Assembly (NCBI GenBank): GCA_039630055.1 | Contig: JBCNVN010000003.1 | Span: forward strand, 56,068 to 92,128 | Length of the DNA stretch: 36,061 nt | Direction of reading: 5' to 3' | DNA from: Candidatus Caldarchaeales archaeon | Lineage (GTDB): Archaea; Thermoproteota; Nitrososphaeria_A; Caldarchaeales; Wolframiiraptoraceae | In this document: in pieces, positions 1 through 16,790 of the stretch | Layout: each line of letters starts with the position of its first letter | Position numbering within the stretch: the stretch's first letter is position 1 | Program-made: the position numbers and the translations under genes | Notes under the pieces: generated by a model | Databases searched by the model: none | Seen by the model: only the letters and a program-made list of their open reading frames with translations | Told to the model about the DNA's origin: nothing

Positions 1-1138
1 TCACCGTTTCCTGCTCTGTAAATAATATTGCACCACTTATACCTATAGTGCTAACTATCGCTTTTATCCTACTGTCTTCTATCATGTCTTTATATCCTTT
101 AGCAAGCTTCTCACCTAGTCTAGCTGCCTCCTCCATCGCTGTTCTTGTAAGTATCTTCTCCAGAGTTACTATTCCCGCCTTCACGGAGAATGGGTTTGCA
201 TTAAAGGTCCCAGCATGTGAAACCTTCCCCGGCCCGAATAGTTCCATTATCTCTTTTCTACCACCTAGAGCAGATAATGGTATACCTCCACCAATCGCTT
301 TACCAAGAGTCTTCAAATCAGGTTTAATACCATACCTCTCTTCCGCACCTCCAAACCATTTACCACACGTCTTAACCTCATCAAATATCAATACTGAGTT
401 GTATTCATTGCAATAATCTCTTAAAGTCTTTAGAAACTCTATTTCAGGCTCTATCACACCCATATTCATCGCTACAGGCTCCAATATTACTCCAGCTATC
501 TCATCTCCATACTTTCTAAACATTTCTTCAACAGACTCTACATCATTGAACTGGGCTACCACTGTATGTTTTGATATCTCCGGTATTAGTCCAGGTGAAG
601 CAAGTACTGATATAGGATGTTTTCGATGTCCAGCTTTTGAGAGGTGGGGTTTAACGCTTACAAGGAGACCGTCGCAGCTTCCATGATAACATCCTTCAAA
701 CTTCATTATCTTGTTCCTTCCAGTATATGCTCTAGCTAATCTAGCCGCATACATTGTAACCTCCATACCCGTAGAGTTAAATCTAACCATATCGAGATTA
801 AATCTTCTACAAATGATCTTTGCTAGCTTAACGCTCTCTTCAGGTTCATGCCCGAAGATCGTTCCATTCTCCAATACATTTTTTAGTTCACTTACTAGTA
901 TAGGATGTGAGTGCCCTGCAACCAATGCGCCGAACGCCATATTAAAGTCAATGTACTCGTTGTTATCAGCATCCCAAACTCTCGATCCTTTAGCTCTTCT
1001 AATAAAGAGGGGGAATGGATCGTGTACACGATAGTTGCTATTGACACCGAAAGGTGTAAGCTTCTTGTTTTCCTCAAATAATTTACATGAAGTAGAAGCC
1101 CTACTAGAGAATTTTTCATATTCTGAACTGAACGACAT
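1..1138 (-). CDS. Class III PLP aminotransferase, glutamate-1-semialdehyde aminomutase (HemL)-like; runs off the left edge
   Basis: Absent from the ORF track because it has no stop in the window. Manual minus-strand translation from ATG at 1138: MSFSSEYEKF...TPFGVNSNYRVHDPFPLFIRRAKGSRVWDADNNEYIDFNMAFGALVAGHSHP, later LIFDEVKT...PDLKTLGKAIGGG (PLP lysine) and HAGTFNANP. May be a HemL paralog given the catabolic context. Confidence 0.88.
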   Translation of the reverse strand, partial: MSFSSEYEKFSSRASTSCKLFEENKKLTPFGVNSNYRVHDPFPLFIRRAKGSRVWDADNNEYIDFNMAFGALVAGHSHPILVSELKNVLENGTIFGHEPEESVKLAKIICRRFNLDMVRFNSTGMEVTMYAARLARAYTGRNKIMKFEGCYHGSCDGLLVSVKPHLSKAGHRKHPISVLASPGLIPEISKHTVVAQFNDVESVEEMFRKYGDEIAGVILEPVAMNMGVIEPEIEFLKTLRDYCNEYNSVLIFDEVKTCGKWFGGAEERYGIKPDLKTLGKAIGGGIPLSALGGRKEIMELFGPGKVSHAGTFNANPFSVKAGIVTLEKILTRTAMEEAARLGEKLAKGYKDMIEDSRIKAIVSTIGISGAILFTEQETV

Positions 1139-1195
1139 ATAACTAACCTCAAAAGATGACTTGATATAGATGGCTAAAAACTTTTTCTCTTATTA

Positions 1196-2002
1196 TTAGT
1201 ACCATTCTTCAACCTCATTATACCATTTCTCTTTTATGCCTATCGATGCTCTCTTCATCCATTTCTTACTCTTTGGAGCTTCTTCTAAAAACTTTATAAT
1301 TCTATGGATTCTATCTGAAACTATAGATGCGTCTTCTAAATTTATATCGTATTCATTTATCTTCGTAGATGTAAGTTTGAGGTTCATGGTTACGGTATAC
1401 CAGAAACCCCAGTCATCGAATAATCCTTGATAGTTGAATGCTTCTAGATTTATCTTGTCATTATCATCGTAACCTATGTCATGAGCTCTTATAAGGACTA
1501 TTATATCTTTAATATCTTTCTCATTTATCTTGACGATCTGTAATTTTTCCAAGAGTAGTTCCGCTAATGGTATAGTTATAGAGTCTTTTTCAAGTCTATT
1601 CTCGAACCTGATAGAGTGGTTCATCTGGAGTTTATCTAGGAATACTTCTACCATCGGTATTCTCGAACCGTAATATATCTGTCTTGTTCTCCCATAATAC
1701 ATCAACAGTCTATTGTCTACTTGATAACCCATACTTCTAAGAAGGTTAAAGTAAGAATCTCTCTGTTTTCCATATCCCGCCAGGTCGATATCTGTAAATA
1801 CTTTTTGAGATAATCTGCCTAATTTCTTCCATAGAGCTTCATACTCCATACTATGAATGTACACTGCAATTCCTCCCATTATCCGTAGTATTAATCCTCG
1901 TCTATTGGCTGATTCAACAATATCCAGTGCCTCTTTTACGAATTCTTCTGGCTTTGGGTATTCTTCTGGTGGTATATCACTAGGCAACTTGAATCTATGC
2001 AT
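1196..2002 (-). CDS. Uncharacterised nucleotidyltransferase-fold (Pol-beta superfamily-like) protein
   Basis: Motif LRIMGGIAV...FTDIDL plus a downstream acidic strand (VEVFLD) and C-terminal KDxxD resemble the GG/GS...DxD signature of NTase-fold proteins. Start moved to ATG 2002 (MHRFKL), which has GGTGA just upstream overlapping the stop of the previous gene; the ORF track starts at 2020. Confidence 0.6.
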   Translation of the reverse strand: MHRFKLPSDIPPEEYPKPEEFVKEALDIVESANRRGLILRIMGGIAVYIHSMEYEALWKKLGRLSQKVFTDIDLAGYGKQRDSYFNLLRSMGYQVDNRLLMYYGRTRQIYYGSRIPMVEVFLDKLQMNHSIRFENRLEKDSITIPLAELLLEKLQIVKINEKDIKDIIVLIRAHDIGYDDNDKINLEAFNYQGLFDDWGFWYTVTMNLKLTSTKINEYDINLEDASIVSDRIHRIIKFLEEAPKSKKWMKRASIGIKEKWYNEVEEWY

Positions 2003-2006
2003 ATAT

Positions 2007-2939
2007 TCACCCAGATACAAACATAAAGCTCTTTAAATTATCTTTCTCTAATTCTATGATGACGCCCCTCATTATTCCTTCACCATATTCGCTCCCCGGA
2101 TTAATACAAGTAGTTCTTCCTATCTTTTGAGAGCCTTTAGACTCATGTATATGTCCATGAAGCCCCAGTATTGGTTGATATTTCTTTATGGCCTCGAGGA
2201 CTGCGATGCTTCCTACATGGACCATCTCGGAGACAGATGGTCTCATATCTTTTGAGAGTTTAGGTGCGAGGTCTAATGGTGTACCGAAAGGTGGTGCATG
2301 AAGATTGAATACCGCTCTCTCAATATCATCTATCTCTCCAGCAAGCCTATCTATTATCTGGGCCAGCTCTTCCTCACTTATTTCTCTCGGAGTCCTCCAA
2401 GGGGTTGGATTCGTATATGGGACAGTTATCATCTCGTGAAAATCGTCGATGTACACTTTTCTCATACATACATTTATGATGACTTTACTACTATTCAGTA
2501 TATCTTCGATATCCCATGGATCATCATTTCCAGCAGAGATGAAAAATCTTATCTCTTTATCTTTTAGTCTTTCTTCTGCTAATTGTATCCATTTTCGGAG
2601 CCTCTCCTTAATCTCATTTATAAACAATCTATCTCTTTCTTCAGGACTCTCTTCAAGTTCTTCGAATTTTCTTCTATCCATCGTTACGGGATAGTAGCCC
2701 ACAGCCATGATCTCTTTTTTTAATTCTTCTATCTGAGTTTCCTTCACCTTCTTCTTCTCTCCCAAGAAGGTAACACTATAACTACCATCCTCATTCTTTA
2801 TTATAGGTATAATTAATTTTCCCGAAAGATCTCCCATCATTATACCTACATCTATCTTATATATTGATAGAGCGTTTAAGAATTTTCTAAAAACGTATTC
2901 TGAGCCATGTACATCTGTTGTGAATAAGATTCGAGTCAT
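2007..2939 (-). CDS. Calcineurin-like (Icc-type) metallophosphoesterase
   Basis: Metal-binding motifs DVHG, GDLSG, GNDD, HAPP, HGHIHE and INPGS are present in the canonical order. Confidence 0.9.
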   Translation of the reverse strand: MTRILFTTDVHGSEYVFRKFLNALSIYKIDVGIMMGDLSGKLIIPIIKNEDGSYSVTFLGEKKKVKETQIEELKKEIMAVGYYPVTMDRRKFEELEESPEERDRLFINEIKERLRKWIQLAEERLKDKEIRFFISAGNDDPWDIEDILNSSKVIINVCMRKVYIDDFHEMITVPYTNPTPWRTPREISEEELAQIIDRLAGEIDDIERAVFNLHAPPFGTPLDLAPKLSKDMRPSVSEMVHVGSIAVLEAIKKYQPILGLHGHIHESKGSQKIGRTTCINPGSEYGEGIMRGVIIELEKDNLKSFMFVSG

Positions 2940-2963
2940 GGTCTCTACCTAAAAAATATATGC

Positions 2964-4592
2964 CTACTCTGGAGGCAGCTCTCTCCATGCCAGATCAATC
3001 TCAATCCCTTTCTTCTTCCATCTCCATCTCCAACCATAGTACCATGCTGCTCCGAATATCCATAATCCCAAGAACCACATTATTGCCAATGGTGTGACAG
3101 CTTCAAGGCCAGGTGTTGTGTAGAAAAAGTAGAGCAATATACCAATGTATACAACATCTATAATACCTGCTATTGTTAGAATTGGGATGGGTCCGATCTT
3201 CCATCTCTTGTAGGGTGATGTCTCCCATATGGTTCTAGCTTTGCCTATGAATGGAAATATTATCGCAGCGATGGCTGTTACACCCCATATACTAACACAC
3301 TCGGTAGCTGTTACGGCTAGACCGGCAAACCACTCAGGATTGAGACTGTACAAGATTATTCCTATCTCGCTAGTTACAAAGATGAAAACTAGATTCTTTA
3401 ATGGGGAAGCCCACTTTGGATGCACTTCAGAGAGCCAGAGAGGTCCCATCCTATCCATTCCCCATGCGACGGCTATCCTACTTGCTGCCACATAGGACAT
3501 AGGGATCCAGATATAGTCTGCCAAGATCAATGAAAGAGATGCAAAGATTGCTAGAAGTACGCCTGTAAATGTTGAAGTATCAATGAAGACTCTTGACATA
3601 CCTACAAAATTTGCAGGGAAGGGCATATTGTAGCCTTCAAGTCCGACATTATCGGCTATCGATAAGGCTCTCATAAAATCTACGCCTACCACTCTAGGAT
3701 ATATTATAGAGAAGATCAATGCAAACACGGCTGGGACGATAATCGCTCCGATCTGAGAGAGTAGTAAATTTCTCTGAGGTCTCTTTACCTCTCCCCCTAT
3801 AACGCTAACCGCCCATCCATAGTGAGCCCACCAAGAATTAACGACCATTAAACCTAAAGTTCCGAATATTATCGGAAGCGTAGGGGTAAATATCTCAGGG
3901 TAAGCTTCTTTAGCCGCCTCGATCATCTCGTTATAGCTTAGAGATCCATATTCTGCAGCCATCTTGTTCCAGGCGGAGACGAAGTCTGCATTTGTATGCA
4001 TTCCGAGAATTATCCCGACAGTCGCCAATGTTATTATTGATAATGTCATTACTATCTTTTGATGAAGTAGGTACCATCTTAAACCATAGAAGGCGAATGA
4101 AAATCCAAGAATGTTTACTGTCGTCGCTACGGTAAACATACCTATAGGAGTCTTAACCCATTCCGCAGCCTCAACAGCATCGATCATACCGAATAATGTT
4201 GTAAGACCTGGGTCAGCTATCCATGGGGAGAGTATCACTATCCATAGCCACCAAATAAAGAAGTCTCCGAAGCTTACGGCCATTCCGATCGCTGGATGAA
4301 TTATTCTTGAATTGTAAATATAGCATCCTCCACTTCTAGGCATAGAGGCTGCTAAAATACCCCAGACGAGCGCTACTCCAGGCAATGTAAAAATTACACT
4401 TAATATTACAGAGCCTAATAGGTCTCCTGAAGGAAATAGGAAAACTCCCCAGCTTAAAAGCATCCATAACGCTATTGCTATCCCTTGATTCATAAAGCCA
4501 AATGAGAATGCGTCTATAAATGATGCCTGTCTAACAAGACCACTAGCTCTCCTAGCAAATATCTCTCTCGGAATAAACTCTTTATCACTCAT
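2964..4592 (-). CDS. APC-superfamily amino acid/polyamine permease
   Basis: 542 aa with about 12 or more hydrophobic segments; N-terminal FxRxASGLVR, MPRSGGxY, GGEVKxP and C-terminal ELPPE are typical of archaeal APC permeases. Confidence 0.88.
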   Translation of the reverse strand: MSDKEFIPREIFARRASGLVRQASFIDAFSFGFMNQGIAIALWMLLSWGVFLFPSGDLLGSVILSVIFTLPGVALVWGILAASMPRSGGCYIYNSRIIHPAIGMAVSFGDFFIWWLWIVILSPWIADPGLTTLFGMIDAVEAAEWVKTPIGMFTVATTVNILGFSFAFYGLRWYLLHQKIVMTLSIITLATVGIILGMHTNADFVSAWNKMAAEYGSLSYNEMIEAAKEAYPEIFTPTLPIIFGTLGLMVVNSWWAHYGWAVSVIGGEVKRPQRNLLLSQIGAIIVPAVFALIFSIIYPRVVGVDFMRALSIADNVGLEGYNMPFPANFVGMSRVFIDTSTFTGVLLAIFASLSLILADYIWIPMSYVAASRIAVAWGMDRMGPLWLSEVHPKWASPLKNLVFIFVTSEIGIILYSLNPEWFAGLAVTATECVSIWGVTAIAAIIFPFIGKARTIWETSPYKRWKIGPIPILTIAGIIDVVYIGILLYFFYTTPGLEAVTPLAIMWFLGLWIFGAAWYYGWRWRWKKKGIEIDLAWRELPPE

Positions 4593-4881
4593 ATTTCTAT
4601 ACCTTTATTTATGCGGATCGAAAAATATATTTTTTTCATATATTTAAAAACCAGACATGTATGTATTACGAATAGTTGATGCTTCTCTTTTCGATAAGTA
4701 ACAAATTTTTGGGATTTGGATACAGAAAGTCTGATACTTTTATCTAAGATCTTTATAAGACAGCATCAACTTTAAACATAACCTATCTTCAAAGTATTGT
4801 GTCAGAATTGTGAAGAGAATAGATTGTAGAGCATTATCGCAAGAACAGAAAGTTATCGGTAGAATATCTTAGATACTTCTT

Positions 4882-5334
4882 CTAAAGCTTTTGTAAAATT
4901 TCATTAAGAACCTTACACATTCTTTGAGATTCTTTCGAGAAAGATTTTAACAGTAGTGCTGCATCTCCAGACATTCGCACTATCTTCGATGAAACTTCTC
5001 TATAGAGATTCTCGAACATCCCTTCTACATCGATTAAAGTCCTTCCAAGATTACTAGAATTCAATAATCTTCTCATCTCTTCTAATCTAGATGTGAGGGA
5101 TGGAAATGACATCGGTTCAAGCGCCATCTCTATGACGGTCTCTCTAGAAGTCTTCTTTAAAGCATCTACCCTTTCCCTATGAACTCTAGCGAGATCTCTT
5201 AGAGCTTTCTTCATCTGGGGATCTTCTATCCTATCTGCCTTCTCTACACATCTATCACTAAATTCTTCTTCTAGTTTTATGAGGAGACTTATCAGCTGGC
5301 TGAAGGTGTAGTTTTCTTCCAAGAATCTCACCAT
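4882..5334 (-). CDS. Hypothetical helical protein, possibly a degenerate ferritin/rubrerythrin-like four-helix bundle
   Basis: 150 aa, helical composition with two similar halves (LIKLEEEF.../LIDVEGMFENLY...); overlaps the upstream dehydrogenase by 7 nt. Confidence 0.5.
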   Translation of the reverse strand: MVRFLEENYTFSQLISLLIKLEEEFSDRCVEKADRIEDPQMKKALRDLARVHRERVDALKKTSRETVIEMALEPMSFPSLTSRLEEMRRLLNSSNLGRTLIDVEGMFENLYREVSSKIVRMSGDAALLLKSFSKESQRMCKVLNEILQKL

Positions 5335-6818
5335 CTCGTGATTATTATCCTCTTATTTGTAAAGAAGTCGACGCAGTCTATTTGTCCGTGGAGAACTCCG
5401 AAGAAAGAATCTTTCCATCCACCAAATGGGAAGAAGGCCATAGGTGCTGCTATCCCTACGTTTATACCGATATTTCCAACAGTGACCCTTTTCCTAAATT
5501 CTCTAGCATTCTTTCCACTCCTAGTAAATATCGAGGCAGCATTTCCATAATTATTATTATTTATCATCTCTATTGCTTCATCGAGGTTTCTTGCAGGCAT
5601 AATCGAGACAACGGGGCCGAATATCTCTTCTCTCGCTATCTTCATATCTGGAGCGACTTCATCGAAGACTGTCGGGCCTATAAAATATCCTTTAGGATAC
5701 TCTGGAACCTTCGAATTTCTTCCATCTAGGATTAGCTTCGCCCCCTCTTCTAAACCCTTTTCCACGTATCCGGTCACACGTTCTAAAGCCTTCTTAGTAA
5801 CAAGAGGACCCATATTAGCTGATTCATCCAATCCATATCCTAGCTTCAGTCTCTTAGATGCTTCTATAAACTTTCTTATTAGTGGTTCATAGATCTCTCC
5901 TACCGGTACTAGGTTTGAGCCTGAGAGACACCGTTGACCCGTGTTTCCATAGAAGGATGTGATCAGGGCAGGAATGGTAAGCTCGAGATCTGCATCCGGC
6001 ATAACTATTATGAAGTTCTTTGCTCCAGCTTGGACTATAGCGCGTTTCCCATATTCACCTGCAAGTTTGTATACTTGTTTTCCAACATGTGTTGAGCCGA
6101 CGAAACAGACTCCCTGTATGCTGGAGTGGGTTATCATGTTTATAGCTGTATCTTTTCCTCCATGTACCATGTTTATGACGCCTGCAGGAAGCTTGACTTC
6201 TTGAAGTACATGCATCAACCAGTCCATAGCAACTGGAGTTATCTCACTTGGTTTAACTACTATTGTATTTCCGAGGACTAGTGCATAAGGTATGAACCAG
6301 AATGGGGCCATAACAGGGAAGTTGAAGGGGCCGATAATCGAGAAGACCCCCATGGGTTCTCTTACGAGAGTTTCATCTATACCCGATGCAACTTGATCGA
6401 GTTGTTCACCCTTCTGAAGGGTATAAGCTATGGCCGCCGCTGTCTCCACATTCTCTATTAATCTTCTTACCTCACCTCTAGCTTCATCTATCACTTTTCC
6501 ATGATTCTGGGATATAATGCGGGATATCTCTTCAAAATGCTCTTCTAAGACATGCCACATCTTGTAGATGTATCTTACCCTCGTTGTTACTGGAAGCTCA
6601 GCCCAAGCTGGAAATGCTTCTTCCGCTGTCTTTATTGCTTCATCGACTTCATCTCTTGTTGCAAATGGGACTTCAGCTATCGTTGTATCTTTTGCAGGGT
6701 TCATAGAGGGGATAACCTCATCTGAGTCCGAATCGACCCATTCACCATCTATATAGAGCTTTAATCTTCCATAGTATTGTTTTACTTCTTCAAGAATCCC
6801 CAAGGAATGCACCTTCAA
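5328..6818 (-). CDS. mmsA: CoA-acylating (methyl)malonate-semialdehyde dehydrogenase (ALDH family)
   Basis: PFNFP, KPSE, FVGST, GAKN (no general-base Glu, as in CoA-acylating MSDHs), GQRC catalytic Cys, EEIFGPV, YGNAASIFT, FFPFGGWKDSFFG; TTG start. Confidence 0.85.
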   Translation of the reverse strand: MKVHSLGILEEVKQYYGRLKLYIDGEWVDSDSDEVIPSMNPAKDTTIAEVPFATRDEVDEAIKTAEEAFPAWAELPVTTRVRYIYKMWHVLEEHFEEISRIISQNHGKVIDEARGEVRRLIENVETAAAIAYTLQKGEQLDQVASGIDETLVREPMGVFSIIGPFNFPVMAPFWFIPYALVLGNTIVVKPSEITPVAMDWLMHVLQEVKLPAGVINMVHGGKDTAINMITHSSIQGVCFVGSTHVGKQVYKLAGEYGKRAIVQAGAKNFIIVMPDADLELTIPALITSFYGNTGQRCLSGSNLVPVGEIYEPLIRKFIEASKRLKLGYGLDESANMGPLVTKKALERVTGYVEKGLEEGAKLILDGRNSKVPEYPKGYFIGPTVFDEVAPDMKIAREEIFGPVVSIMPARNLDEAIEMINNNNYGNAASIFTRSGKNAREFRKRVTVGNIGINVGIAAPMAFFPFGGWKDSFFGVLHGQIDCVDFFTNKRIIITRW

Positions 6819-6960
6819 AACTCATAGTTGTAACTTAGAATTTAAAGATTCATTCCATGTAAATATAGATCGAAAAATCCATGTCTTTATAAATTATTCA
6901 ATATAAGTGGAGGTTGTGGTTTCTAATATATTATCTTGCATAGTTTAGATCGTAGAGAGA

Positions 6961-7911
6961 TTAAGAGAGTAGGAGAGCCATGATCGCGGCTTCAGTCCAT
7001 AGTCTATTCTCTGCTTGATCATAAACTACAGACCATCTTCCATCTATTACTTCGCTCGTCATCTCATTTCCCCTATAGGCTGGGAGACAGTGCATGAATA
7101 TTGCATCTTCTTTTGCAAGATTCATAACGTCAACAGTTACTGTGAATGGTTTGAAATCTTCCTTCCTCTTCTCTTTATCCATCTCCGGCTTCCCCATACT
7201 CCACCAAGTATTAGCATAGACTATATCCGCTCCCTTTACAGCCTCTCTTATATCATGGACAATCTCCAGTCTTGTCCCGTTTCTAGATGCAGCATCTTGA
7301 CCGAACTTCCATATCTCTGGTAAAGGATCATACCCTTTAGGTGCAGCTATTATCAAATCTATTCCGAATAGGGGGGCCACAGTTATGAGTGAGTGGCAGA
7401 CATTCCACACATCCCCAGTGTAGACCATCTTTAACTCTTGAAGCCTTCCCTTCTTCTCTTTTATGGTCATCAAGTCGGCCATAGCTTGACATGGATGTTC
7501 TTCATCTGTAAGAGCATTTATCACCGGGTTTTTCATGTACTCTGCATACTCTACTACCTCACTCTGTTCAAATGTTCTTATAACGAGGGCGTCAAAATAT
7601 CTATCTAAGACTTTTGCGGTATCGATTATCGGCTCACCCCTAGCAAGCTGTAGCTCATCAGGTCTCATATAGACCGAGAATGCTCCCAGCCTACTGGCGG
7701 CTACTTGAAACGAGTTTCTAGTTCTAGTCGAAGGCTTCTTAAAGATTAGAGCGATATTCCTTCCATCCAAGATCTCTCTAAGATTCCTCCTCATACCTCC
7801 ATAAAACATTGATTTGAGCTGGAAGGAGAGATCCAGTATATGGGATAATTCTTCTTTTGTAAAATCTCTAGTCGTGATAAAATCTCTACCTCTAAGAGAA
7901 TATCCTACCAT
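6961..7911 (-). CDS. Ornithine-carbamoyltransferase-family transcarbamylase with an atypical substrate loop
   Basis: STRTR, HPCQ, HCLP, QAENR and SMG motifs. ATG 7911 (MVGYSLRGRDF) is a more likely start than TTG 7974. The DxxxSMG Asp is replaced by Asn, so argF is not assigned. Confidence 0.85.
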   Translation of the reverse strand: MVGYSLRGRDFITTRDFTKEELSHILDLSFQLKSMFYGGMRRNLREILDGRNIALIFKKPSTRTRNSFQVAASRLGAFSVYMRPDELQLARGEPIIDTAKVLDRYFDALVIRTFEQSEVVEYAEYMKNPVINALTDEEHPCQAMADLMTIKEKKGRLQELKMVYTGDVWNVCHSLITVAPLFGIDLIIAAPKGYDPLPEIWKFGQDAASRNGTRLEIVHDIREAVKGADIVYANTWWSMGKPEMDKEKRKEDFKPFTVTVDVMNLAKEDAIFMHCLPAYRGNEMTSEVIDGRWSVVYDQAENRLWTEAAIMALLLS

Positions 7912-8005
7912 AAGCTTCTCTAACACAACGTTGAGAGTATCATAAATATATGTGTATCTTGAGAATAATTTCAAAATTTAAATATTGTTCATGGAAAAAA
8001 TCTTT

Positions 8006-8283
8006 GTGAGTAAGATAGAGGATTAAAAATCGATCTCCAATTTTCATACTCCTCCATATAATTCAATCCTCGACTCGGCACCTAAGCTGTTAGAAAGGCT
8101 ATTGAAAAATATCAACCGATTTTAGGACTCCATGGACATATTCATGAGTCGAGGGGTGTGACGCAGATAGGTAGAACACTCTGTATCAATCCGGGCAGCG
8201 AATATTCAGAAGGTATTCTTCATGGAGTAATAGTTGATCTAAGCAAAGGTAAGATTGATAGGTACTTGCTCACAACAGGCTAA
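8006..8283 (+). pseudogene. Decayed C-terminal fragment of a second Icc-type metallophosphoesterase
   Basis: Manual translation: VSKIED*KSISNFHTPPYNSILDSAPKL, frameshift, then AVRKAIEKYQPILGLHGHIHESRGVTQIGRTLCINPGSEYSEGILHGVIVDLSKGKIDRYLLTTG*. Clearly homologous to the C-terminus of 2007..2939. Confidence 0.88.
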
Positions 8284-9797: not shown

Positions 9798-9968
9798 TAG
9801 AGATCACTATGTTAATGTTTGATTAAGGAAAAAACTTTATGTCGATATAATCTTACATGCTTAGAATCTTTGAGGTTTATTCGAGAGCCTTAGACATATG
9901 GGATGATTTTATTCAGTTAAAGCTATATACTACAAAAGATAAATATATCGCCTTAAAGAAACGTTAAT

Positions 9969-11144
9969 ATGATGGTTGGTAGAAGGGATGTTTTAAAGAT
10001 AGCGGTTGCTGGGGTACTCGGCGCAGCCGTCGGAGGAGCAGCAGGTTATTTTCAGGGTAGGGCAGAGGTTGAAGGTCTGAGGAGAGAAGTTGAAGACCTT
10101 TCAAAACAGATCGGAGAACTCAAGGTTAGACTCGAGCCGAATCTAAACATATACAACTGGACATACTATATCAATAGAAACATAGTTGATCAGTGGGCTG
10201 AGGAGAATAGGATAAACTTAGTCTATGATACATTCGAGTCAATTGATGAGGTTGTTGCAAAACTATCCACTGGTGCTAGTGGATATGACTTAGCCATGCT
10301 ATCCGATTCCGAAGTATTAGAGATCTCCTCATTAAACTTGCTTGAACCAATAAACTTGAAAAAGATCCCTAATTTTAAGTATATACCTGAAAGATTCAAG
10401 AAACCATACTATGATCCTGAGAACAAGTATAGTGTATTGTATAGTTATGGAACAACTGGAATAGGATGGAATAATATGGAGGTTTCTCCAGAGGTGACCA
10501 TGTGGGCTGATATATTTGAAGTTGATAGACATCTGGGAAAATATCAGAAAAAGATAACAATGATGAATGATACGGATGAAACATATGGTGCTGTCTTGAT
10601 ATATCTAGGAAGAGACCCTAACAGTAGTAAAGATGAAGATCTCAGAGAGGCAATAGAAGTATTAAAAAGACAGAAACCTTATCTTGCAGGTTATGCGTCA
10701 ACTGAAGAGTATATGGATGGGTTGGAGGCTGGTAGGTTCTGGATAAGCCATGCATTTAATGGAGATATAGCAGGGATAATGTATGCATCCGATGAAAGAG
10801 AGATAATAATATCGAAGCAAGTAGAGCATATCTCGTATACAGTTCCTGAAGAAGGTGCTCTAGCATGGACAGACAACTTCGTCATTCCTAAAGGTGCAAA
10901 GAATATTGAGGCTGCTCACGCTTTCATAAACTTCATTCTAGACCCGGCGGTATCGGCTATCTGTACGATTACAGTTAAGTATCCATTTCCAGCAGGTAGA
11001 GACTATGTTCCCGAGGAGATACGTAACGATCCAGTCGTATTCACACCTGAAGAACAGCTGGATAAACTCTACTGGGGTAGGCCTTTTACACCAGAGGAGC
11101 GGGCTAAGAGAGCAGAGTATTGGCTTGAACTCATGGCGGCTTAA
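9969..11144 (+). CDS. potD: Spermidine/putrescine ABC transporter substrate-binding protein with twin-arginine signal
   Basis: GRRDVLK Tat-like motif and hydrophobic stretch; LNIYNWxxYI, GYDL, GTTGI, PEEGALAWTDNFVIPKGAKN, FINF are PotD/PotF-like. Confidence 0.88.
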   Translation: MMVGRRDVLKIAVAGVLGAAVGGAAGYFQGRAEVEGLRREVEDLSKQIGELKVRLEPNLNIYNWTYYINRNIVDQWAEENRINLVYDTFESIDEVVAKLSTGASGYDLAMLSDSEVLEISSLNLLEPINLKKIPNFKYIPERFKKPYYDPENKYSVLYSYGTTGIGWNNMEVSPEVTMWADIFEVDRHLGKYQKKITMMNDTDETYGAVLIYLGRDPNSSKDEDLREAIEVLKRQKPYLAGYASTEEYMDGLEAGRFWISHAFNGDIAGIMYASDEREIIISKQVEHISYTVPEEGALAWTDNFVIPKGAKNIEAAHAFINFILDPAVSAICTITVKYPFPAGRDYVPEEIRNDPVVFTPEEQLDKLYWGRPFTPEERAKRAEYWLELMAA

Positions 11145-11178
11145 GATCTTCTATATTATTACTTGAAGTGGTTAAGAG

Positions 11179-12063
11179 ATGAGCTTTCTCGAACCGCTAA
11201 TAAAAAACATTAGAAAGAGTACAAAGCTTAAAGTCTCTCTACTTCTGGCTCCACCCCTGATCTTTTTAGCTATCTGGTTCTATGCACCCTTCTTTGTACT
11301 AGGTCTATACAGCTTTAACATGGTAGATATAAAGAGACAGATTGTCTTTGCACCTTCACTAGAACACTACTCCAAGATTCTAACATGGTCGGGTGCCGTA
11401 AACATCTATCTCCGCTCTCTGTATTTCGCTGGTCTAACAGTTATATTATGTTTACTTATCGGTTATCCTGCAGCCTACTATATCTCGTTTAAAATGAAGA
11501 AGTATAAAGACTTGTTCATAATACTTTTCATTATACCTTTCTGGGTGAGCTTCCTACTTAGAACTTACGCTATGATGAGTATCCTCGATGAGAGAGGCTT
11601 CATAAATACTATGCTCACCTATCTTGGGATTATAGGCTCACCCCTCAAGATTATGTACACAGATATAGCTGTGATATTGGTTATGGTATACGATTATCTC
11701 GTATTGATGGTCTTGCCATTATATGCAAATCTTGAAAAACTTGATAGAGCATTATTAGAGGCAGCATCTACTCTAGGAGCCAGCCCATTCAGAACATTCA
11801 TTAAAGTAACACTACCTCTCAGTATGCCGGGGATTATGGCCGGGTTCCTACTAGTCTTCATACCTGCTGTCGGAGAGTTCGTTATACCCGAGCTTGTGGG
11901 AGGGCCAAACAACTACATGGTTGGTAACATCATTTACGAGATCTTTATGGGTGCTAGGCACTGGTGGATAGGCTCAGCCTTCTCCATGCTATTTATAGCC
12001 TTCATCCTATCTCTAGTTATAATCTACATTAGAAAGATCGGTGAGGGGGGTTTGGCTATATAG
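11179..12063 (+). CDS. potB: Polyamine ABC transporter permease
   Basis: GYPAAY, IPFWVSFLLR, EAA loop (LLEAASTLGA), TLPLSMPG. Confidence 0.9.
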   Translation: MSFLEPLIKNIRKSTKLKVSLLLAPPLIFLAIWFYAPFFVLGLYSFNMVDIKRQIVFAPSLEHYSKILTWSGAVNIYLRSLYFAGLTVILCLLIGYPAAYYISFKMKKYKDLFIILFIIPFWVSFLLRTYAMMSILDERGFINTMLTYLGIIGSPLKIMYTDIAVILVMVYDYLVLMVLPLYANLEKLDRALLEAASTLGASPFRTFIKVTLPLSMPGIMAGFLLVFIPAVGEFVIPELVGGPNNYMVGNIIYEIFMGARHWWIGSAFSMLFIAFILSLVIIYIRKIGEGGLAI

Positions 12064-12839
12064 TGAGACTTATACCTTTGTTCTTGAAAGTATTCGTCAT
12101 CCTGGTATTCTTATTCCTATACTCTCCAATCGTTGTCATGGTGCTATACTCATTCAACGAGGCAAGATCATTAGGGGTCTTTACGAACTTCTCTTTAAAA
12201 TGGTATGAGAGGGTCTTAGCGAACCCGAGCGTATGGAGCGGACTTTACAACTCTTTCTGGGTTGCAGCTGTAGTAACTATAGTTTCAACGATCCTAGGGT
12301 TGATGATCGCTACGGCTGTTACGAGGTATAATTTTAAGGGTAGAAGCTTTCTAGAAGGTCTTATACTCATACCTATAATTATACCAGAGATAGCTGAAGC
12401 CCTCTCCCTCATGATAATGTATATTTTTCTTAATATCCCGATGGGGCCGATAACGGTTATAATAGGGCATATAGCATTCGATATATCCTATGTGACAGTG
12501 GTGATGAGGGCTAGGATGGTGGGATACAATAGGGCTGTAGAAGAAGCTGCTAGAACTTTGGGAGCGAACGAGCTTCAGACCTTTATCAAGATAACTCTAC
12601 CGATGCTCTACCCTGCCATACTTGCATCAGCTCTACTAGCTTTCACGCTAAGCTTCGATGACTTGATCAAGACACTATTCACTACTGGGCCAGGATTTAG
12701 AACTCTACCCTTAATAGTCTGGACATCTGCGGCCAGGGGAGGGGTCTCACCAGAGCTAAACTCTTTATCCACTTTCGCTCTATCTATATCGTTCTTATTT
12801 GCGATCTTTAGATTGAGGGCAGAGAAGGGGATGAGGTGA
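12063..12839 (+). CDS. potC: Polyamine ABC transporter permease
   Basis: FLYSPI, YSFN, EEAARTLGA, AFTLSFDD, TLPL; overlaps its neighbours (translational coupling). Confidence 0.9.
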   Translation: MRLIPLFLKVFVILVFLFLYSPIVVMVLYSFNEARSLGVFTNFSLKWYERVLANPSVWSGLYNSFWVAAVVTIVSTILGLMIATAVTRYNFKGRSFLEGLILIPIIIPEIAEALSLMIMYIFLNIPMGPITVIIGHIAFDISYVTVVMRARMVGYNRAVEEAARTLGANELQTFIKITLPMLYPAILASALLAFTLSFDDLIKTLFTTGPGFRTLPLIVWTSAARGGVSPELNSLSTFALSISFLFAIFRLRAEKGMR

Positions 12840-13906
12840 TGGCTGAATTATACTCCGTCGAGTTGGAGAACGTTGTCAAAAGATTCGGAAACGTTGTAGC
12901 GGTAGATCATGTTAATATCAAGATAAAGGAGAACGAGTTCTTCTCTCTTCTCGGACCTTCTGGATGTGGAAAGACAACTACTCTGAGAATAGTTGCAGGA
13001 TTAGAAGAGCCAGATGAAGGTGTGGTAAAGCTGCATGGTAGAGATGTTACAGATGTTCCTACACATAAGAGAAATATTGGAATGGTCTTCCAGAATCTAG
13101 CGCTCTTCCCACATATGGATGTATTCGAGAACATTGCTTTCGGATTGAAGATGAAGAAAGTTCAAAAAGAAGAGATAAAGAGAAAAGTGAAGGAGATATT
13201 GGAGATAGTTAAACTTGAAGGCTTGGAGAGGAGGAGGATATCTCAGCTGAGTGGAGGTCAACAGCAGCGTGTAGCTCTCGCTAGAGCACTGGTCATAGAG
13301 CCGAGTGTACTTTTATTAGACGAGCCTCTAGGAGCCTTAGATCTGAAGATAAGACAGCACATGATGGTTGAGTTGAAGAATATTCAGAGACGGGTGGAGA
13401 CAACCTTCATCTACGTTACACATGACCAGACAGAAGCGATGACAATGTCGGATAGAATCGCCATAATGAAAGATGGTAGAATACAGCAGATAGGAACACC
13501 TCTACAGATATACTACGAGCCTTCGAACACTTTCGTAGCATCTTTTATCGGAGAGGCTGTAAATCTTATAGAGGGAGAATTAAAAGAAGATGGAGTTATA
13601 GAGACAGGTCTAGGTCCTATATACTGTCCATTCTCAGAGGCTAGGGGGAGGGCTGCTTTAATGCTTAGACCTGAAGTATTGGAGATAGGTAATAGATTAG
13701 AGGAGCAGGATAACATTCTAAGAGGAGTGGTTCAAGCGACGATCTTCAAAGGACCATACATAGAATACAGAGTAGATGTAGGAGGCACGATATTCATAAT
13801 CCACAAACATGGATTATCTGGTACTGGGAATATTTATTCTGTGGGAAGTCATGTAGAAGTAGGTTGGAAGAAAGACTCATCATTAATAATTCCTCTTGAA
13901 AGGTGA
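12836..13906 (+). CDS. potA: Polyamine ABC transporter ATPase
   Basis: Walker A GPSGCGKT, signature LSGGQQQR, Walker B LLLDEP, H-loop VTHD, C-terminal TOBE-like region. Confidence 0.93.
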   Translation: MMAELYSVELENVVKRFGNVVAVDHVNIKIKENEFFSLLGPSGCGKTTTLRIVAGLEEPDEGVVKLHGRDVTDVPTHKRNIGMVFQNLALFPHMDVFENIAFGLKMKKVQKEEIKRKVKEILEIVKLEGLERRRISQLSGGQQQRVALARALVIEPSVLLLDEPLGALDLKIRQHMMVELKNIQRRVETTFIYVTHDQTEAMTMSDRIAIMKDGRIQQIGTPLQIYYEPSNTFVASFIGEAVNLIEGELKEDGVIETGLGPIYCPFSEARGRAALMLRPEVLEIGNRLEEQDNILRGVVQATIFKGPYIEYRVDVGGTIFIIHKHGLSGTGNIYSVGSHVEVGWKKDSSLIIPLER

Positions 13907-14239
13907 TTATTCCACCACATCTCACCAACTATAAAAGTACTGGTCTTTATCATCTTTTAGAAGTTTATGAGAGAGCTTCTTGAAGAGCTTTATATGAAGA
14001 AGTTCGATCCGCTATATGTCAAGTCTGATATTGACCGATATATTTACCATAAAAAGACTAGAATCAAGACCAACAATAGAGAAAGAGTCAAGATCCAAGT
14101 TAACAATATTTTAAGAGGTTAATGGTATATCATATGGAAAAGATTTGAAAAACTGGGACGGTAGATCTTTTACTGATAAGAGAAAAGATTTTAGTGTTGG
14201 TTAAACCAAAAATGTAATTGTCCTATCTGGTGAAGTTTT

Positions 14240-15394
14240 GTGAGGTTTCTAGTTCTAGGTGGTTCAGGAATCATCGGCTCTACGATCGTTAGAGACCTTC
14301 TAACAGATGAAGAAGTCGAAGAGGTAACTATAGGAGATATAGATGAAGAAAAAAGTAAAAAACTCATCAAGGAGATCGGAGATGGAAGGCTAATTCAAAA
14401 ACGCATCGATGTTAGAGATATTGACAACCTCTCTCAAGAGATGAAGAAATATGATGTAACAATAAACTCCACATGGTATCAATTAAATCTTCATGTTACT
14501 AAGGCTGCTATAATTTCGAGATCAAGATTGATAGACCTGGGAGGGCTTTACCACATGACTCTAAGACAGCTTGAGCTAGATGAGCAAGCAAAGAATGCGA
14601 AGTCATCTATTCTGATTGGATGTGGTGAAGACCCTGGAGTAAGTAATATAATGATAAAGTATGTCGCAGATAAGTTTGATGAAGTTCACTCGATCATTAT
14701 AAGAGATGGTGATAAGGATCTTAAGCCTACAGAGAGACCTATCTTCAAGTTCTCCATCAGGACGATAGTAGATGAATGGACCATGAATGCAGTAGTGTTT
14801 AGAGATGGAAGGTTTGAGGAGGTCCCGCCATTGAGCGGTATCGAGATATTCGAGTTTCCGGAGCCTGTTGGAAGACTATCTGTCGGATATAGTTTACACT
14901 CTGAACTTGCAACGATACCTAGAACCATCAACAAGAAGGTTAGATATGTTGACTTTAAATTGAGTGAGAATTTTGAGTTAGTCAACTCTCTTAGAAGCCT
15001 AGGCCTATTATCTGATGAAACAATAACTCTAGATAATCTTAGAATTACCGGTAAAGAATTAACAATAAAGCTTCTATCAAGGTTCATGGCAGACCCATCA
15101 GTAGAGTTAGAGGATGTAACATGTATACTGATAAGGGTTGATGGGGTTAAGGATGGAGTAGAAACATCATATACTATGTATGCTCTCTCTAATTCTAGAA
15201 AGGATTGGAAGGCTTCAGCCTCCAGCTACATAACAGGCGTACCACCATCCATAGTTGCTAGAATGATGGTGAGAGGTGAAGTTGAGTTTTACGGAGTCCA
15301 GCCACCCGAGTTATGTGTTCCCGCTAACAAGTTCCTCTCAAATCTTAAAGAATATAGGGGAATTATAGTTGGAGAAAAGATAGAGAAGGGTTAA
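14240..15394 (+). CDS. Saccharopine dehydrogenase / carboxy(nor)spermidine dehydrogenase / lysine 6-dehydrogenase family oxidoreductase
   Basis: N-terminal Rossmann LVLGGSGIIG, IDLGG, GCGEDPG (cf. GxGxDPG), HSE(L), GVxPPE near the C-terminus. Confidence 0.82.
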   Translation: MRFLVLGGSGIIGSTIVRDLLTDEEVEEVTIGDIDEEKSKKLIKEIGDGRLIQKRIDVRDIDNLSQEMKKYDVTINSTWYQLNLHVTKAAIISRSRLIDLGGLYHMTLRQLELDEQAKNAKSSILIGCGEDPGVSNIMIKYVADKFDEVHSIIIRDGDKDLKPTERPIFKFSIRTIVDEWTMNAVVFRDGRFEEVPPLSGIEIFEFPEPVGRLSVGYSLHSELATIPRTINKKVRYVDFKLSENFELVNSLRSLGLLSDETITLDNLRITGKELTIKLLSRFMADPSVELEDVTCILIRVDGVKDGVETSYTMYALSNSRKDWKASASSYITGVPPSIVARMMVRGEVEFYGVQPPELCVPANKFLSNLKEYRGIIVGEKIEKG

Positions 15395-15452
15395 GTCGTC
15401 AATATTCTGGAAAACTCTATATATGGGAAGTATCTTTAGAGAGTATGGAGAT

Positions 15453-16790
15453 TTAACTAGTGGAAACTTCTTGGTCAGCGATCTTTAGAGACTCATCTAA
15501 AACTTCGACTCCTTTATCTATATCTTCCTTGCTGGCAATAAGCGGTGGAGCGACTATTAGATTATTTACCCATCCTATGATGAAGACCCCTAGCTCGCTC
15601 GCCTTTGCAGCCACCTTCTCAACCACTATAGGTCTTCCAGCAAGTTTATCCTTAGGCGTATTCATAAACTTCCTTGTCTTCTTATCTCTCGTTAGATCTA
15701 TGGCCCAGAACATTCCTATACCTCTCACCTCTCCTACAGATCGATGATATTCCAGCTCCTTCAATCTTTTACCAAGATAATCGCCGACTTTCTTTACATT
15801 CTCTTGAATATTCAACCTCTTGTACTCATTTATAGTTGCTATTCCAGCCGCTAATGTTACTGGATGGGCTTCGTATGTATGTCCATGAGCAAAAAGGTTT
15901 TCTTCAAAGTATTCTGAGATCTCCCTTGACACACCTGTCACTCCCAATGGTAGATATCCTGATGTAACACCCTTAGCGGTGGTTATGATGTCCGGCTCAA
16001 CCTTCCAGTGGTTTACTGCAAACCATTCTCCCGTCCTAAGCCAACCACTCATTACTTCATCGACTATCAATAATACATTGTGCTCTCTTGTTATCTCTCT
16101 CAGACGTGGTAGATACTCAGGAGGAGGAACCATCACGCCGTTCGACCCAACTACAGGCTCGATTATAACTGCAGATACATCTCCTTCATGTTGAAGCATG
16201 TAATCAATGTACTCGACGCAAGCCAATCCACAATCTGGATATGATAGCTTGAATGGGCATCTATAACAGTAGCATTCTGGGGCGAACTGTGTTCCTGGCA
16301 CCGTATGGTATCCATCTATAGGGATTCTACGTAATTCTCCAGTAACGGAGATGGAGGCCGCTGTAGCTCCATGATAACTCCTATATCTTGAGATGATCTT
16401 ATGCTTCTTATTGTACATTCTAGCTATCTTCAATGCGGCTTCAACAGCTTCTGTTCCAGAAGTAGAATAGAAGAATTTTACTATACTCTTAGGCATGATC
16501 TCCAACAACATTCTACTGAGCTCTGCTCTTACATCACATGTAAAGGCAGGTGTAAGATATTGGAGCTTCTTCATATATTCATAGATAGCATTTATTACAT
16601 TCATGTTACTATGCCCAAGGTTTACACAGATCAATTGGGAGGATAGGTCGAGATACTTCTTACCACTTGAATCTTTAAAGTAACACCCTTCAGCAGACAC
16701 GATGTTTATAGGTTTCCAAGTCTTCTGAACCCTCCAAGTACCGAAAACATGCCTCCGAGTAATCTCTACTGTTTCATCAAATCCAGACAT
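15453..16790 (-). CDS. Class III PLP omega-aminotransferase (beta-alanine/taurine/GABA type)
   Basis: YLDLSSQ, NLGH, SGTEAVEAA, SYHG, DEVMSG, DIITTAKG (PLP Lys), HGHTY, RGIG, APPL. Confidence 0.9.
   Translation of the reverse strand: MSGFDETVEITRRHVFGTWRVQKTWKPINIVSAEGCYFKDSSGKKYLDLSSQLICVNLGHSNMNVINAIYEYMKKLQYLTPAFTCDVRAELSRMLLEIMPKSIVKFFYSTSGTEAVEAALKIARMYNKKHKIISRYRSYHGATAASISVTGELRRIPIDGYHTVPGTQFAPECYCYRCPFKLSYPDCGLACVEYIDYMLQHEGDVSAVIIEPVVGSNGVMVPPPEYLPRLREITREHNVLLIVDEVMSGWLRTGEWFAVNHWKVEPDIITTAKGVTSGYLPLGVTGVSREISEYFEENLFAHGHTYEAHPVTLAAGIATINEYKRLNIQENVKKVGDYLGKRLKELEYHRSVGEVRGIGMFWAIDLTRDKKTRKFMNTPKDKLAGRPIVVEKVAAKASELGVFIIGWVNNLIVAPPLIASKEDIDKGVEVLDESLKIADQEVSTS

Follow-up and report, generated by a model that had tools for sequence, protein, structure and literature searches.

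Do the genes for amine transport, deimination, carbamoyl transfer and transamination that crowd the first 17 kb of a 36,061-nucleotide stretch of archaeal DNA form one catabolic system, or do unrelated standard enzymes lie side by side there? The stretch (hereafter, the window) derives from a Candidatus Caldarchaeales archaeon of the family Wolframiiraptoraceae (assembly GCA_039630055.1, contig JBCNVN010000003.1) and corresponds to positions 56068–92128 of contig C23 in this 1.54-Mb, 92% complete genome, labeled G000. An original prediction, made from the sequence alone, had proposed the import and breakdown of polyamines via β-alanine and malonate semialdehyde, with a deiminase and a transcarbamylase yielding carbamoyl phosphate. 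In silico, the island, its catabolic flavor, the β-alanine/malonate-semialdehyde end and the deiminase–transcarbamylase energy step hold, whereas the imported compounds and a C–N cleavage by the saccharopine dehydrogenase-like (SDH-like) enzyme are conjectural. From the gene identities, folds, active-site motifs, paralogy, synteny and phyletic pattern reported here, we infer the catabolic direction, every substrate and the coupling of two gene modules, A and B. The genes would thereby constitute a two-module catabolic island for nitrogen-rich cationic compounds, restricted within the family to one genus, and we consider the case for this interpretation evenly balanced.

Genes were identified by open reading frame (ORF) calling and by Pfam and NCBIfam scans of the window proteins. 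The features are as follows:

2–1138 (–): AT1, HemL-like class III aminotransferase (Pfam Aminotran_3, 221.6 bits)
1196–2020 (–): 274-aa nucleotidyltransferase-like protein, a lead only (Atlas clusters)
2007–2939 (–): 310-aa metallophosphoesterase-like protein (Pfam Metallophos, 22.2 bits, E = 2e-4)
2964–4592 (–): 542-aa divergent APC-type permease (ESM Atlas clusters)
4882–5334 (–): 150-aa helical ORF (weak DUF2383, E = 0.0016)
5328–6818 (–): MmsA, ALDH6-type (methyl)malonate-semialdehyde dehydrogenase (MSDH; TIGR01722, 493.9 bits)
6961–7974 (–): 'N-type' transcarbamylase of the ornithine transcarbamylase (OTC) clade (TIGR00658, 374.6 bits)
8074–8280 (+): relic of a metallophosphoesterase gene, 69 aa (blastx)
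8382–9797 (–): 471-aa putative deiminase resembling arginine deiminase (ADI; Pfam ADI, 26.1 bits)
9969–11144 (+): PotD/PotF-like binding protein with an N-terminal membrane anchor (NCBIfam PotF, PotD)
11179–13906 (+): PotB, PotC and PotA, ABC permeases and ATPase (NCBIfam)
14240–15394 (+): SDH-like NAD(P)-dependent dehydrogenase with the fold of carboxyspermidine dehydrogenase (CASDH; Pfam Sacchrp_dh_NADP, Sacchrp_dh_C)
15453–16790 (–): AT2, omega-amine/omega-amino-acid class III transaminase (Pfam, 310.4 bits)
16885–20032 (+): LutC-like and LdhH-like (LutB+CCG) genes (LUD_dom, Fer4 and CCG domains)

Every gene named in the original prediction (PotDBCA, APC permease, SDH-like enzyme, two aminotransferases, MmsA, deiminase and transcarbamylase) was thus recovered where it had been placed, by ORF, Pfam, NCBIfam or Atlas evidence. 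Contigs from three DNA runs (two samples of one hot-spring study) span positions 1–17000 of the window at at least 95% identity.

In the mechanism that we propose, module A (2–9797, minus strand) would begin with the ADI-like deiminase turning a guanidino carboxylate into a ureido compound. The transcarbamylase, which lacks the aspartate (Asp) that binds ornithine, would phosphorolyse this compound to an amine and carbamoyl phosphate, and carbamate kinase, whose gene lies at the beginning of this contig, would make ATP. AT1 would transaminate the amine to a semialdehyde, to be oxidized by the CoA-acylating MSDH here and by a tungsten aldehyde:ferredoxin oxidoreductase (AOR) in relatives, with the APC-type permease serving uptake or exchange. 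In module B (9969–16790), PotDBCA would import a polyamine-like amine, from which the CASDH-fold NAD(P) enzyme and AT2 would yield amino-aldehydes and omega-amino acids, and the module would end with the conversion of β-alanine via malonate semialdehyde to acetyl-CoA. For this genus, that sequence is the best-supported terminal step. Our best guess for the guanidino substrates is agmatine- or arginine-derived guanidino acids that lack the α-amino group or carry it in blocked form (for instance 3-guanidinopropionate, 4-guanidinobutyrate or N-acyl-arginine), and for the Pot/SDH module it is aminopropyl/aminobutyl polyamines. Both the C–N cleavage by the SDH-like enzyme and its action on aminopropyl polyamines are presumed from the genes. 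A fuller formulation is tentative, and we rather doubt that it holds in its entirety: an anaerobic, ATP-conserving route that combines an omega-guanidino-acid or N-blocked-arginine deiminase from a deep ADI-like family, the long-postulated catabolic transcarbamylase for an omega-amino acid (such as β-alanine or γ-aminobutyrate (GABA)), represented by the Asp-less clade, and a CASDH-fold NAD(P) enzyme that cleaves polyamines (spermidine, norspermidine, aminopropylagmatine) at their secondary amines to amino-aldehydes. Under this formulation, polyamines and agmatine from dead thermophile biomass would be fermented by the hot-spring archaeon, with acetyl-CoA, succinate, ammonia and ATP as the yield.

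Conservation of the gene cluster was assessed with an alignment of 33 deiminase homologues, which was used to query archaeal and bacterial genomes (one per species) and returned 46 loci. The public loci nearest to the window belong to hot-spring Aigarchaeota of the Wolframiiraptoraceae (Candidatus Geocrenenecus). Retrieved loci carry L-numbers and sampled genomes G-numbers; some G genomes may equal L loci and would then not be independent. Neighbors were counted in the 41 of 46 loci with a deiminase ORF (mean flank, 9.6 kb), and the expected numbers were obtained from the copy numbers in G000 under random placement:

Class III aminotransferase: 13 of 41 loci, expected 2.0
Tungsten AOR: 12 of 41 loci, expected 1.7
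SDH-like gene: 10 of 41 loci, expected 0.8
OTC-like transcarbamylase: 4 of 41 loci, expected 0.5
PotD: 4 of 41 loci, expected 0.3
Carbamate kinase: 3 of 41 loci, expected 0.3
Hydantoinase/carbamoylase M20 amidase: 3 of 41 loci, expected 0.3

Around the deiminase homologues of these archaeal loci, neighbor families are therefore 5- to 12-fold more frequent than under random placement, and the clustering exceeds chance. The gene order varies among the genomes of the genus: MSDH–deiminase–transcarbamylase–AT1, AOR and PotDBCA–SDH–SDH2 occur as three groups in G082, AT1–PotDBCA–SDH–AOR–SDH2 followed at some distance by MSDH in G261, MSDH and PotDBCA–SDH–SDH2 separately in G166, and transcarbamylase and, farther along, deiminase, then PotDBCA–SDH and AT2 in G194. 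In two distant Thermoproteota genomes assembled from metagenomes (L020, L021), PotD, SDH–PotCBA, AOR, AT1 and the deiminase all lie inside 11 kb. The island genes are reshuffled yet kept together, both across the genus and in distant Thermoproteota, which bears out the conservation on which the original prediction depended.

The phyletic pattern is narrow. Of 401 genomes sampled across the phylum, eight carry the deiminase, one copy being apparently decayed (G326:C57:3917–4747, with six in-frame stops over 274 aligned positions); it occurs in all five other sampled genomes of the genus, and in none of the 19 that represent the family's other genera. An SDH orthologue (at least 58% identity) was found in six of seven genus genomes, while no match above 38% came from the 23 genomes that stand for four other genera; the PotD orthologue has the same distribution (6/7 and 0/23, respectively). 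The window-type transcarbamylase (84–89% identity) occurs in four of seven genus genomes and was not found in the family's other genera, where canonical OTC alone is present (43–48% identity). As far as the family was sampled, orthologues of the deiminase, transcarbamylase, PotD and SDH-like enzyme were found in this genus alone.

We then examined what each enzyme is likely to do. The 471-aa protein scored 18.3 bits against the arcA equivalog TIGR01078, short of the cut-off of 489.1, and is approximately 15–18% identical to known ADIs. A single-sequence search of the PDB returned only a chance match (E = 0.3), and a profile search gave weak matches to arginine:glycine amidinotransferase (AGAT; E = 0.006, at the C-terminus) and to ADI. 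An AlphaFold model computed on the 33-homologue alignment was of high quality (predicted local distance difference test (pLDDT) 90.7; predicted template modeling score (pTM) 0.91), and Foldseek ranked ADI first (E = 1e-14). In VIA-align, the top eight matches to model residues 128–471 were all ADIs (Z 28.7–31.4, root mean square deviation 2.5–3.0 Å, approximately 300 residues), followed by NnhA (27.0), SxtG (26.5), ArgZ (26.3), dimethylarginine dimethylaminohydrolase (25.4), AGAT and HsvA (both 25.1) and, lowest, agmatine deiminases (23.1) and AstB (22.9). The model gives residues 1–127 an additional helical N-terminal domain. In a profile alignment with a weak E-value (0.077), D166, R185, E224 and R243 of Pseudomonas aeruginosa ADI (1rxx) correspond to D231, R250, E287 and R309 of the island protein, and H278, D280 and C406 to H347, D349 and C464; all seven residues are invariant across the 33 homologues. 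We take R185 and R243 to hold the substrate carboxylate and the other five to be catalytic. Judging by sequence and model, the protein is a putative hydrolytic ADI-like enzyme with a carboxylate-bearing substrate. No fused form was seen among proteins of 826–2355 aa, which is weak evidence.

Ureido-cleaving enzymes (transcarbamylase, carbamate kinase and M20 amidase) recur beside the deiminase. An M20 hydantoinase/carbamoylase amidase directly follows it in L024, L033 and L035 (TIGR01879, 314 bits, above the cut-off of 204), and in L024 a GABA-transaminase-like gene comes next, with an AOR nearby. M20 carbamoylases act on substrates whose ureido group is near a carboxylate. Carbamate kinase lies beside the deiminase in L027, L036 and L044, and an argininosuccinate-lyase-like gene adjoins it in L011, L016 and L019.

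The island transcarbamylase, which in all probability begins at the ATG at 7911, exceeds the TIGR00658 cut-off (374.6 versus 280.85 bits), and its best PDB match is Pyrococcus furiosus OTC (300 bits). The carbamoyl-phosphate motifs defined for the family, SxRT, HPxQ and HxLP, and the Lys of FxKxSxRT (PMC4581275) are represented by FKKPSTRTR, HPCQ and HCLP. However, ANTWWSMG replaces DxxxSMG, whose Asp binds ornithine directly (PMC4581275), and GDVWNV replaces GDGNNV, the first Asn having become Trp; P. furiosus OTC reads TDVWASMG and GDGNNV. The Lys that pairs with the carboxylate of ornithine is retained. The pattern ANTW-x-SMG is shared by all six deiminase-adjacent OTC-clade transcarbamylases (window, L012, L045, L036, L044 and G054); L027 differs in having a knotted acetylornithine transcarbamylase/YgeW-like enzyme with carbamate kinase. 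Among 130 aligned representatives, out of the best 150 from a search of 1.84 billion, 118 possess the Asp, and the four closest to the island enzyme (62–47% identity) do not. In an 80-row tree, eight non-Asp transcarbamylases occupy one side of a branch with an approximate likelihood ratio (SH-aLRT) support of 99, and by sequence the island enzyme belongs to a separate Asp-less OTC clade.

Since the carboxylate residues are kept and the Asp charge for the α-ammonium is lost, the sequence suggests that the amine substrate carries a carboxylate and no free α-amino group; a C5 acid or N-acyl-ornithine would suit the carboxylate site that the enzyme retains from OTC. Direct use of agmatine or N-carbamoylputrescine by the deiminase and transcarbamylase is disfavored because both the carboxylate-binding Args of ADI and the carboxylate-pairing Lys of the transcarbamylase are present; a guanidino acid is favored instead. 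All four signatures of putrescine transcarbamylase (PTC), namely Gln before STRT, a (Y/W)(G/W)(V/L/I) 230-loop, a C-terminal helix of about 20 residues and TIGR04384 (PMC3282769), fail here: the Lys is kept, the loop reads SMG, there is no C-terminal extension and the TIGR04384 score is 286.1 against 500. A canonical OTC with TDVFVSMG and GDGNNV (421 bits) is encoded at C26 (G000:C26:8008–8907; L050:1498–2448). This housekeeping copy reads HPLP in place of the usual HCLP, which the island paralogue has.

The original prediction had called for a genome search for carbamate kinase. The gene is present at the start of the window's own contig, where the contig end truncates it, and it scored above the cut-off in all five further deiminase-bearing genomes examined. 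Carbamate kinase was rejected as an exclusive marker of deiminase genomes, as two other genera carry it beside other transcarbamylases. In these deiminase-less genera, a different transcarbamylase paralogue (35–40% identity) directly adjoins carbamate kinase (G387:C86:1827–3781 and G402:C1:68505–70462), which points to another catabolic transcarbamylase system.

We next considered the aminotransferases and aldehyde oxidation. The truncated AT1 gene scored 359.6 bits, and full-length orthologues 394.6 and 397.9 bits, against hemL (TIGR00713), all below the cut-off of 527.3; the true HemL of G000 is encoded at C4 (570 bits), with a further paralogue at C13. In a 13-row tree, AT1 clusters with seven further HemL-like proteins linked to the deiminase, apart from true HemL (SH-aLRT 96), and AT1 orthologues adjoin the deiminase or AOR in L045, L017, L020–22 and L026. 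The C-terminal 50 or so residues of AT1 are lost in a scaffold gap, a 10-N run at C23:56057–56066 immediately before window position 1; a public contig (run X1, record 1) reaches 382 nt further out than the start of the window and could complete the gene. An upstream extension of the cluster was rejected: past the gap come housekeeping genes (exosome, SBDS, ABCE1), with no visible continuation of the cluster. For AT2, the best PDB match is taurine:2-oxoglutarate aminotransferase (6jix, E = 5e-80), followed by omega-transaminases including polyamine:pyruvate transaminase (9j4z), and orthologues with 85–90% identity lie beside the SDH-like gene in L006 and L012.

The aldehyde dehydrogenase passes the TIGR01722 cut-off (493.9 versus 448.5 bits), and all ten of its PDB matches are MSDHs, led by the Bacillus subtilis enzyme (1t90, E = 1.9e-126). 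It keeps GQRC, and QAGAKN, aligned to TGAKN of B. subtilis, replaces the catalytic-Glu motif, in line with the loss of this Glu from ALDH6 enzymes (PMC12041015). On its sequence, the assignment as a CoA-acylating (methyl)malonate-semialdehyde dehydrogenase is firm, as originally predicted. G082, G166 and G261 each have an MSDH-type gene within or close to the island, and the AOR of the genus island has an orthologue on C12 of G000 (77% identity). The MSDH-type gene common in the genus is present in G000 at C33:259–1752 (L079) with an internal TAG at approximately residue 437 of 498, and is either a pseudogene or affected by a sequencing error. The intact, divergent MSDH of the window may have replaced it.

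Module B includes the importer and the SDH-like enzyme. The binding protein scored below the PotF (157.7 versus 636 bits) and PotD (132.9 versus 582 bits) cut-offs; its best PDB matches, at E of about 1e-45, are SpuE (3ttl, E = 6e-45) and PotF, and all 22 matches to E = 1e-10 are polyamine, putrescine or spermidine binders or unnamed relatives. Among solved proteins it is nearest to PotF and SpuE, and it is a putative polyamine binder, in keeping with the original prediction. The GD, WTDNF and Tyr positions are kept, and NWTYYI stands where SpuE and PotF have NWTDYI; these aligned positions are presumably the ligand contacts of PotF. PotB (212.9 bits) and PotC (209.2 bits) remain under their cut-offs, and PotA exceeds that of the subfamily TIGR01187 (365.6 versus 355.6 bits). 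The order of the Pot and SDH-like genes is kept in L006, L012, L045, L020 and L021.

The model of the SDH-like protein (pLDDT 95.9) matched CASDHs best in VIA-align (8h52, Z 47.7, root mean square deviation 2.1 Å, 374/384 residues; 8deb, Z 47.1), approximately 6 Z units above P. horikoshii lysine dehydrogenase (3abi, Z 41.5, 339 residues), and then saccharopine reductases (Z 32–35) and homospermidine synthases (about Z 30). By sequence, it is 20–23% identical to CASDHs and scored 58.4 bits against 800 for the equivalog NF043000, and its best PDB match is 3abi (E = 5.8e-20). In its modeled structure, the enzyme is nearest to CASDH, which agrees with the saccharopine/carboxyspermidine-dehydrogenase-like identity originally proposed. 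The carboxyspermidine decarboxylase (CASDC) model nspC (TIGR01047) had zero matches in the 92%-complete G000 and matched in control genomes; canonical CASDH/CASDC biosynthesis was rejected on this basis, and the known biosynthetic role of the enzyme is accordingly disfavored.

Three other explanations of the locus were weighed. According to the most conventional one, only the classical ADI pathway operates: arginine would be converted to citrulline, a catabolic OTC and carbamate kinase would yield ATP, the APC permease would exchange arginine for ornithine, and the Pot, SDH-like, aminotransferase and MSDH genes would be separate or process ornithine. ADIs are indeed the top structural matches of the deiminase, which keeps their substrate-binding residues; the transcarbamylase is above the OTC cut-off, with an archaeal OTC as the best match; the deiminase, transcarbamylase and APC permease of G054 resemble arcA–arcB–arcD; carbamate kinase is in the genome; JGI labels several homologues 'arginine deiminase'; and the pathway is reported to be widespread in archaea (PMC11032458). 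The OTC-level score of the transcarbamylase and the closeness of the deiminase to genuine ADIs lend this explanation some probability; we nevertheless consider it unlikely. The ornithine-binding Asp (PMC4581275) is Asn in all six deiminase-linked enzymes, which form a separate clan with Trp for the first Asn of GDGNN, and the arcA score falls far below its cut-off. The M20 carbamoylase partner in three loci suggests a ureido group close to a carboxylate, and an exchanger-based pathway leaves the recurrent linkage to Pot/SDH, AOR, HemL-like aminotransferase and, in the genus, MSDH unexplained.

A biosynthetic scheme, in which the 471-aa protein moves an amidino group from arginine to an amine in the manner of HsvA, AGAT or SxtG, ornithine is recovered through the transcarbamylase and a polyamine is assembled by the CASDH-like enzyme, appears quite improbable to us. 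These amidinotransferases are close structural matches and AGAT has the best profile E-value, but ADIs lead them by 2 to 6 Z units. The argininosuccinate-lyase-like neighbor in three loci and the CASDH fold of the SDH-like enzyme would suit the scheme; on the other hand, partner enzymes such as carbamate kinase, M20 carbamoylase, AOR, omega-transaminases and MSDH belong to catabolism and handle products of the ureido or aldehyde kind, nspC has no match in the genome, an importer rather than an exporter is encoded, and the canonical OTC already serves arginine synthesis. Lastly, HemL, ArgF, lysine dehydrogenase, a valine-pathway MmsA and housekeeping polyamine uptake might be juxtaposed by chance, with no common pathway. 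Each gene does have a generic family annotation, several transcription units on both strands are involved, and by sequence the SDH-like protein matches lysine dehydrogenase best. Chance is largely refuted, and we assign it a very small probability: true HemL and canonical OTC reside elsewhere in the genome, synteny survives rearrangement in five genus genomes and in distant members of the phylum, the genus-restricted distribution is common to the island genes, and neighbors are enriched 5- to 12-fold. The original prediction had named HemL, ArgF and lysine dehydrogenase as the standard enzymes that would undo it; of these, HemL and ArgF are excluded, whereas chemistry like that of L-lysine 6-dehydrogenase (PH1688 type; 3abi, Z 41.5) may still apply.

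Several observations weigh against the two-module catabolic island. The biochemical role is predicted from the genes, and the residue roles in the deiminase and the binding protein are our assumptions; the island stretch was found in three public DNA runs, with no RNA run among them. No single substrate fits all loci, as MSDH is unsuited to GABA, ornithine and 5-aminovalerate and the GABA-transaminase-like neighbor in L024 is unsuited to β-alanine. The carbamate kinase gene lies 56 kb from the island and is also present in two deiminase-less genera of the family (g4, 3/3; g5, 2/3). The window MSDH has no close orthologue, other copies in the genus being 44–47% identical, and the MSDH–150-aa ORF–permease–phosphoesterase–nucleotidyltransferase block resembles an insertion specific to G000, so that some components of module A may work independently of one another. 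Finally, the enrichment figures are rough, since the loci are phylogenetically related and the expectations derive from the copy numbers of G000.

The smaller genes of module A have their own histories. The 542-aa membrane protein had no Pfam match even at E = 10 and falls into ESM Atlas AA_permease_2 clusters (0.99, 231/256 features), which makes an APC permease a supported lead; homologues (34–38% identity) occur in L009 and L010, and the deiminase and transcarbamylase genes of G054 are followed by one for an APC permease. The 274-aa ORF had no Pfam or NCBIfam match, its closest named Atlas clusters are NTP_transf_5/DUF2204 (0.92–0.96), and homologues (47–49% identity) adjoin the deiminase in L007, L009 and L010; those of the metallophosphoesterase-like protein (36–44% identity) lie near it in L007, L009, L010 and L037. 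Another such nucleotidyltransferase-like/metallophosphoesterase pair, with 37% and 41% identity to that of the window, is located at G000:C24:3990–9177 (L078), where its neighbors are a further class III aminotransferase and a gamma-glutamyltranspeptidase; such a pair thus recurs with amine-metabolizing genes. The 150-aa ORF shares 7 bases with the end of the MSDH gene and has no homologue in the related loci. The relic, in the approximately 400-bp spacer between the transcarbamylase and deiminase genes, matches residues 242–310 of the 2007–2939 protein at 42 of 69 residues (61%, E = 2e-27) with an in-frame stop. Because its orientation relative to the deiminase is that of the intact gene in L009 and L010, it suggests an older arrangement of the deiminase with nucleotidyltransferase, phosphoesterase and permease, later rearranged.

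Beyond AT2, the LutC-like and LdhH-like genes keep their order beside AT2 in the genus relatives L006 and L012; the LdhH-like gene scored 512.6 bits on the LdhH model, under the cut-off of 800, and a link of the pair to the island is uncertain. In the closed 1.3-Mb genome G054 (C1:397062–403870; L063, L064), the deiminase operon begins with genes for a GlcD-like FAD oxidase, a GlcF-like Fe–S protein and a CCG protein and continues with those for the deiminase, the Asp-less transcarbamylase and the APC permease. A 2-hydroxyacid oxidase module thus accompanies the deiminase system twice. Further downstream, a 2,4-diaminopentanoate-dehydrogenase-like (Ord-like) gene (24813–25823, –; NF040740, 269.8 versus 400 bits) lies tail to tail with a glutamate dehydrogenase gene (23556–24809, +). 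The clostridial oxidative ornithine pathway was rejected for it (best OrtB score 55.9 versus 550 bits; no OrtA match, control genomes being equally silent), and since the OrtA/OrtB thiolase was not found in the genome, another amine dehydrogenase is more likely. A ComA-family protein (20796–21638, +; Pfam, 228.7 bits; archaeal phosphosulfolactate synthase equivalog, 75.8 versus 280) is, by its sequence, a divergent member in a non-methanogen. An Rfam scan of the window at gathering thresholds gave zero matches and no riboswitch; a tRNA-Glu(TTC) called by ARAGORN inside the potC coding sequence (12226–12310, +) was judged a probable false positive because Rfam is silent at that site.

How does the island compare with known systems? 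With the ADI pathway arcA–arcB–arcC–arcD of Pseudomonas aeruginosa and Halobacterium salinarum, it shares the deiminase fold with its catalytic and carboxylate residues, an adjoining OTC-family enzyme, carbamate kinase and an APC-type permease in the operon. It differs in that the deiminase is of a very distant family with an extra 127-aa helical N-domain, the transcarbamylase forms its own clade without the DxxxSMG Asp, carbamate kinase is unlinked, and Pot, CASDH-like, HemL-like aminotransferase and MSDH/AOR genes are added. P. aeruginosa degrades polyamines and β-alanine with spermidine dehydrogenase, the transaminase BauA and the malonate-semialdehyde dehydrogenase BauC. An omega-transaminase with a CoA-acylating MSDH leading to acetyl-CoA and a polyamine ABC importer are common to both, whereas FAD/heme spermidine dehydrogenase, amine oxidase and gamma-glutamylation (Puu) genes are absent from the window (Pfam scan), as originally noted; a CASDH-fold NAD(P) enzyme is found where the C–N cleaver is expected, and relatives use tungsten AOR for aldehydes. 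The SDH-like enzyme matches CASDH and carboxynorspermidine dehydrogenase of alternative spermidine biosynthesis (8h52, 8deb) over nearly full length, but its gene lies in an importer operon, identity is low, the equivalog score is not reached and the genome has no decarboxylase match. Like the agmatine deiminase pathway of Enterococcus faecalis (AguA, PTC, AguC, AguD), the island would couple deiminase, transcarbamylase and carbamate kinase to ATP on a non-arginine guanidino compound, with polyamine-type transport; unlike it, the island has a deiminase that resembles ADI (Z 31) more closely than agmatine deiminases (Z 23) and a transcarbamylase that fails the PTC signatures (PMC3282769). The arginine synthetase (ArcE) pathway of Thermococcus kodakarensis is likewise archaeal and ATP-yielding with OTC and carbamate kinase, but employs an unrelated ADP-dependent enzyme instead of a deiminase (PMC11032458).

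The deiminase/transcarbamylase/carbamate kinase and omega-transaminase/MSDH logic is therefore already known from the ADI, agmatine-deiminase and Pseudomonas β-alanine pathways; the three central enzymes each come from uncharacterized clades. The literature accessible to our search contained no study of polyamine or guanidino catabolism by such a route in archaea, of this deiminase family in Thermoproteota or of archaeal SDH-type polyamine catabolism, the supplementary tables of PMC11032458 and PMC9246946 being outside the search; the searchable text of the Wolframiiraptoraceae paper (PMC9246946) does not contain polyamine, spermidine, arginine or putrescine. A family review of 2015 lists a catabolic β-alanine transcarbamylase as unproven (PMC4581275). 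If the two-module interpretation is correct, a conserved archaeal ADI-like family would gain a function, the well-studied transcarbamylase family a new specificity and the carboxyspermidine-dehydrogenase fold a catabolic role. The island would then also show how thermophiles that feed on peptides or necromass gain ATP at the substrate level from the polyamines abundant in thermophiles.

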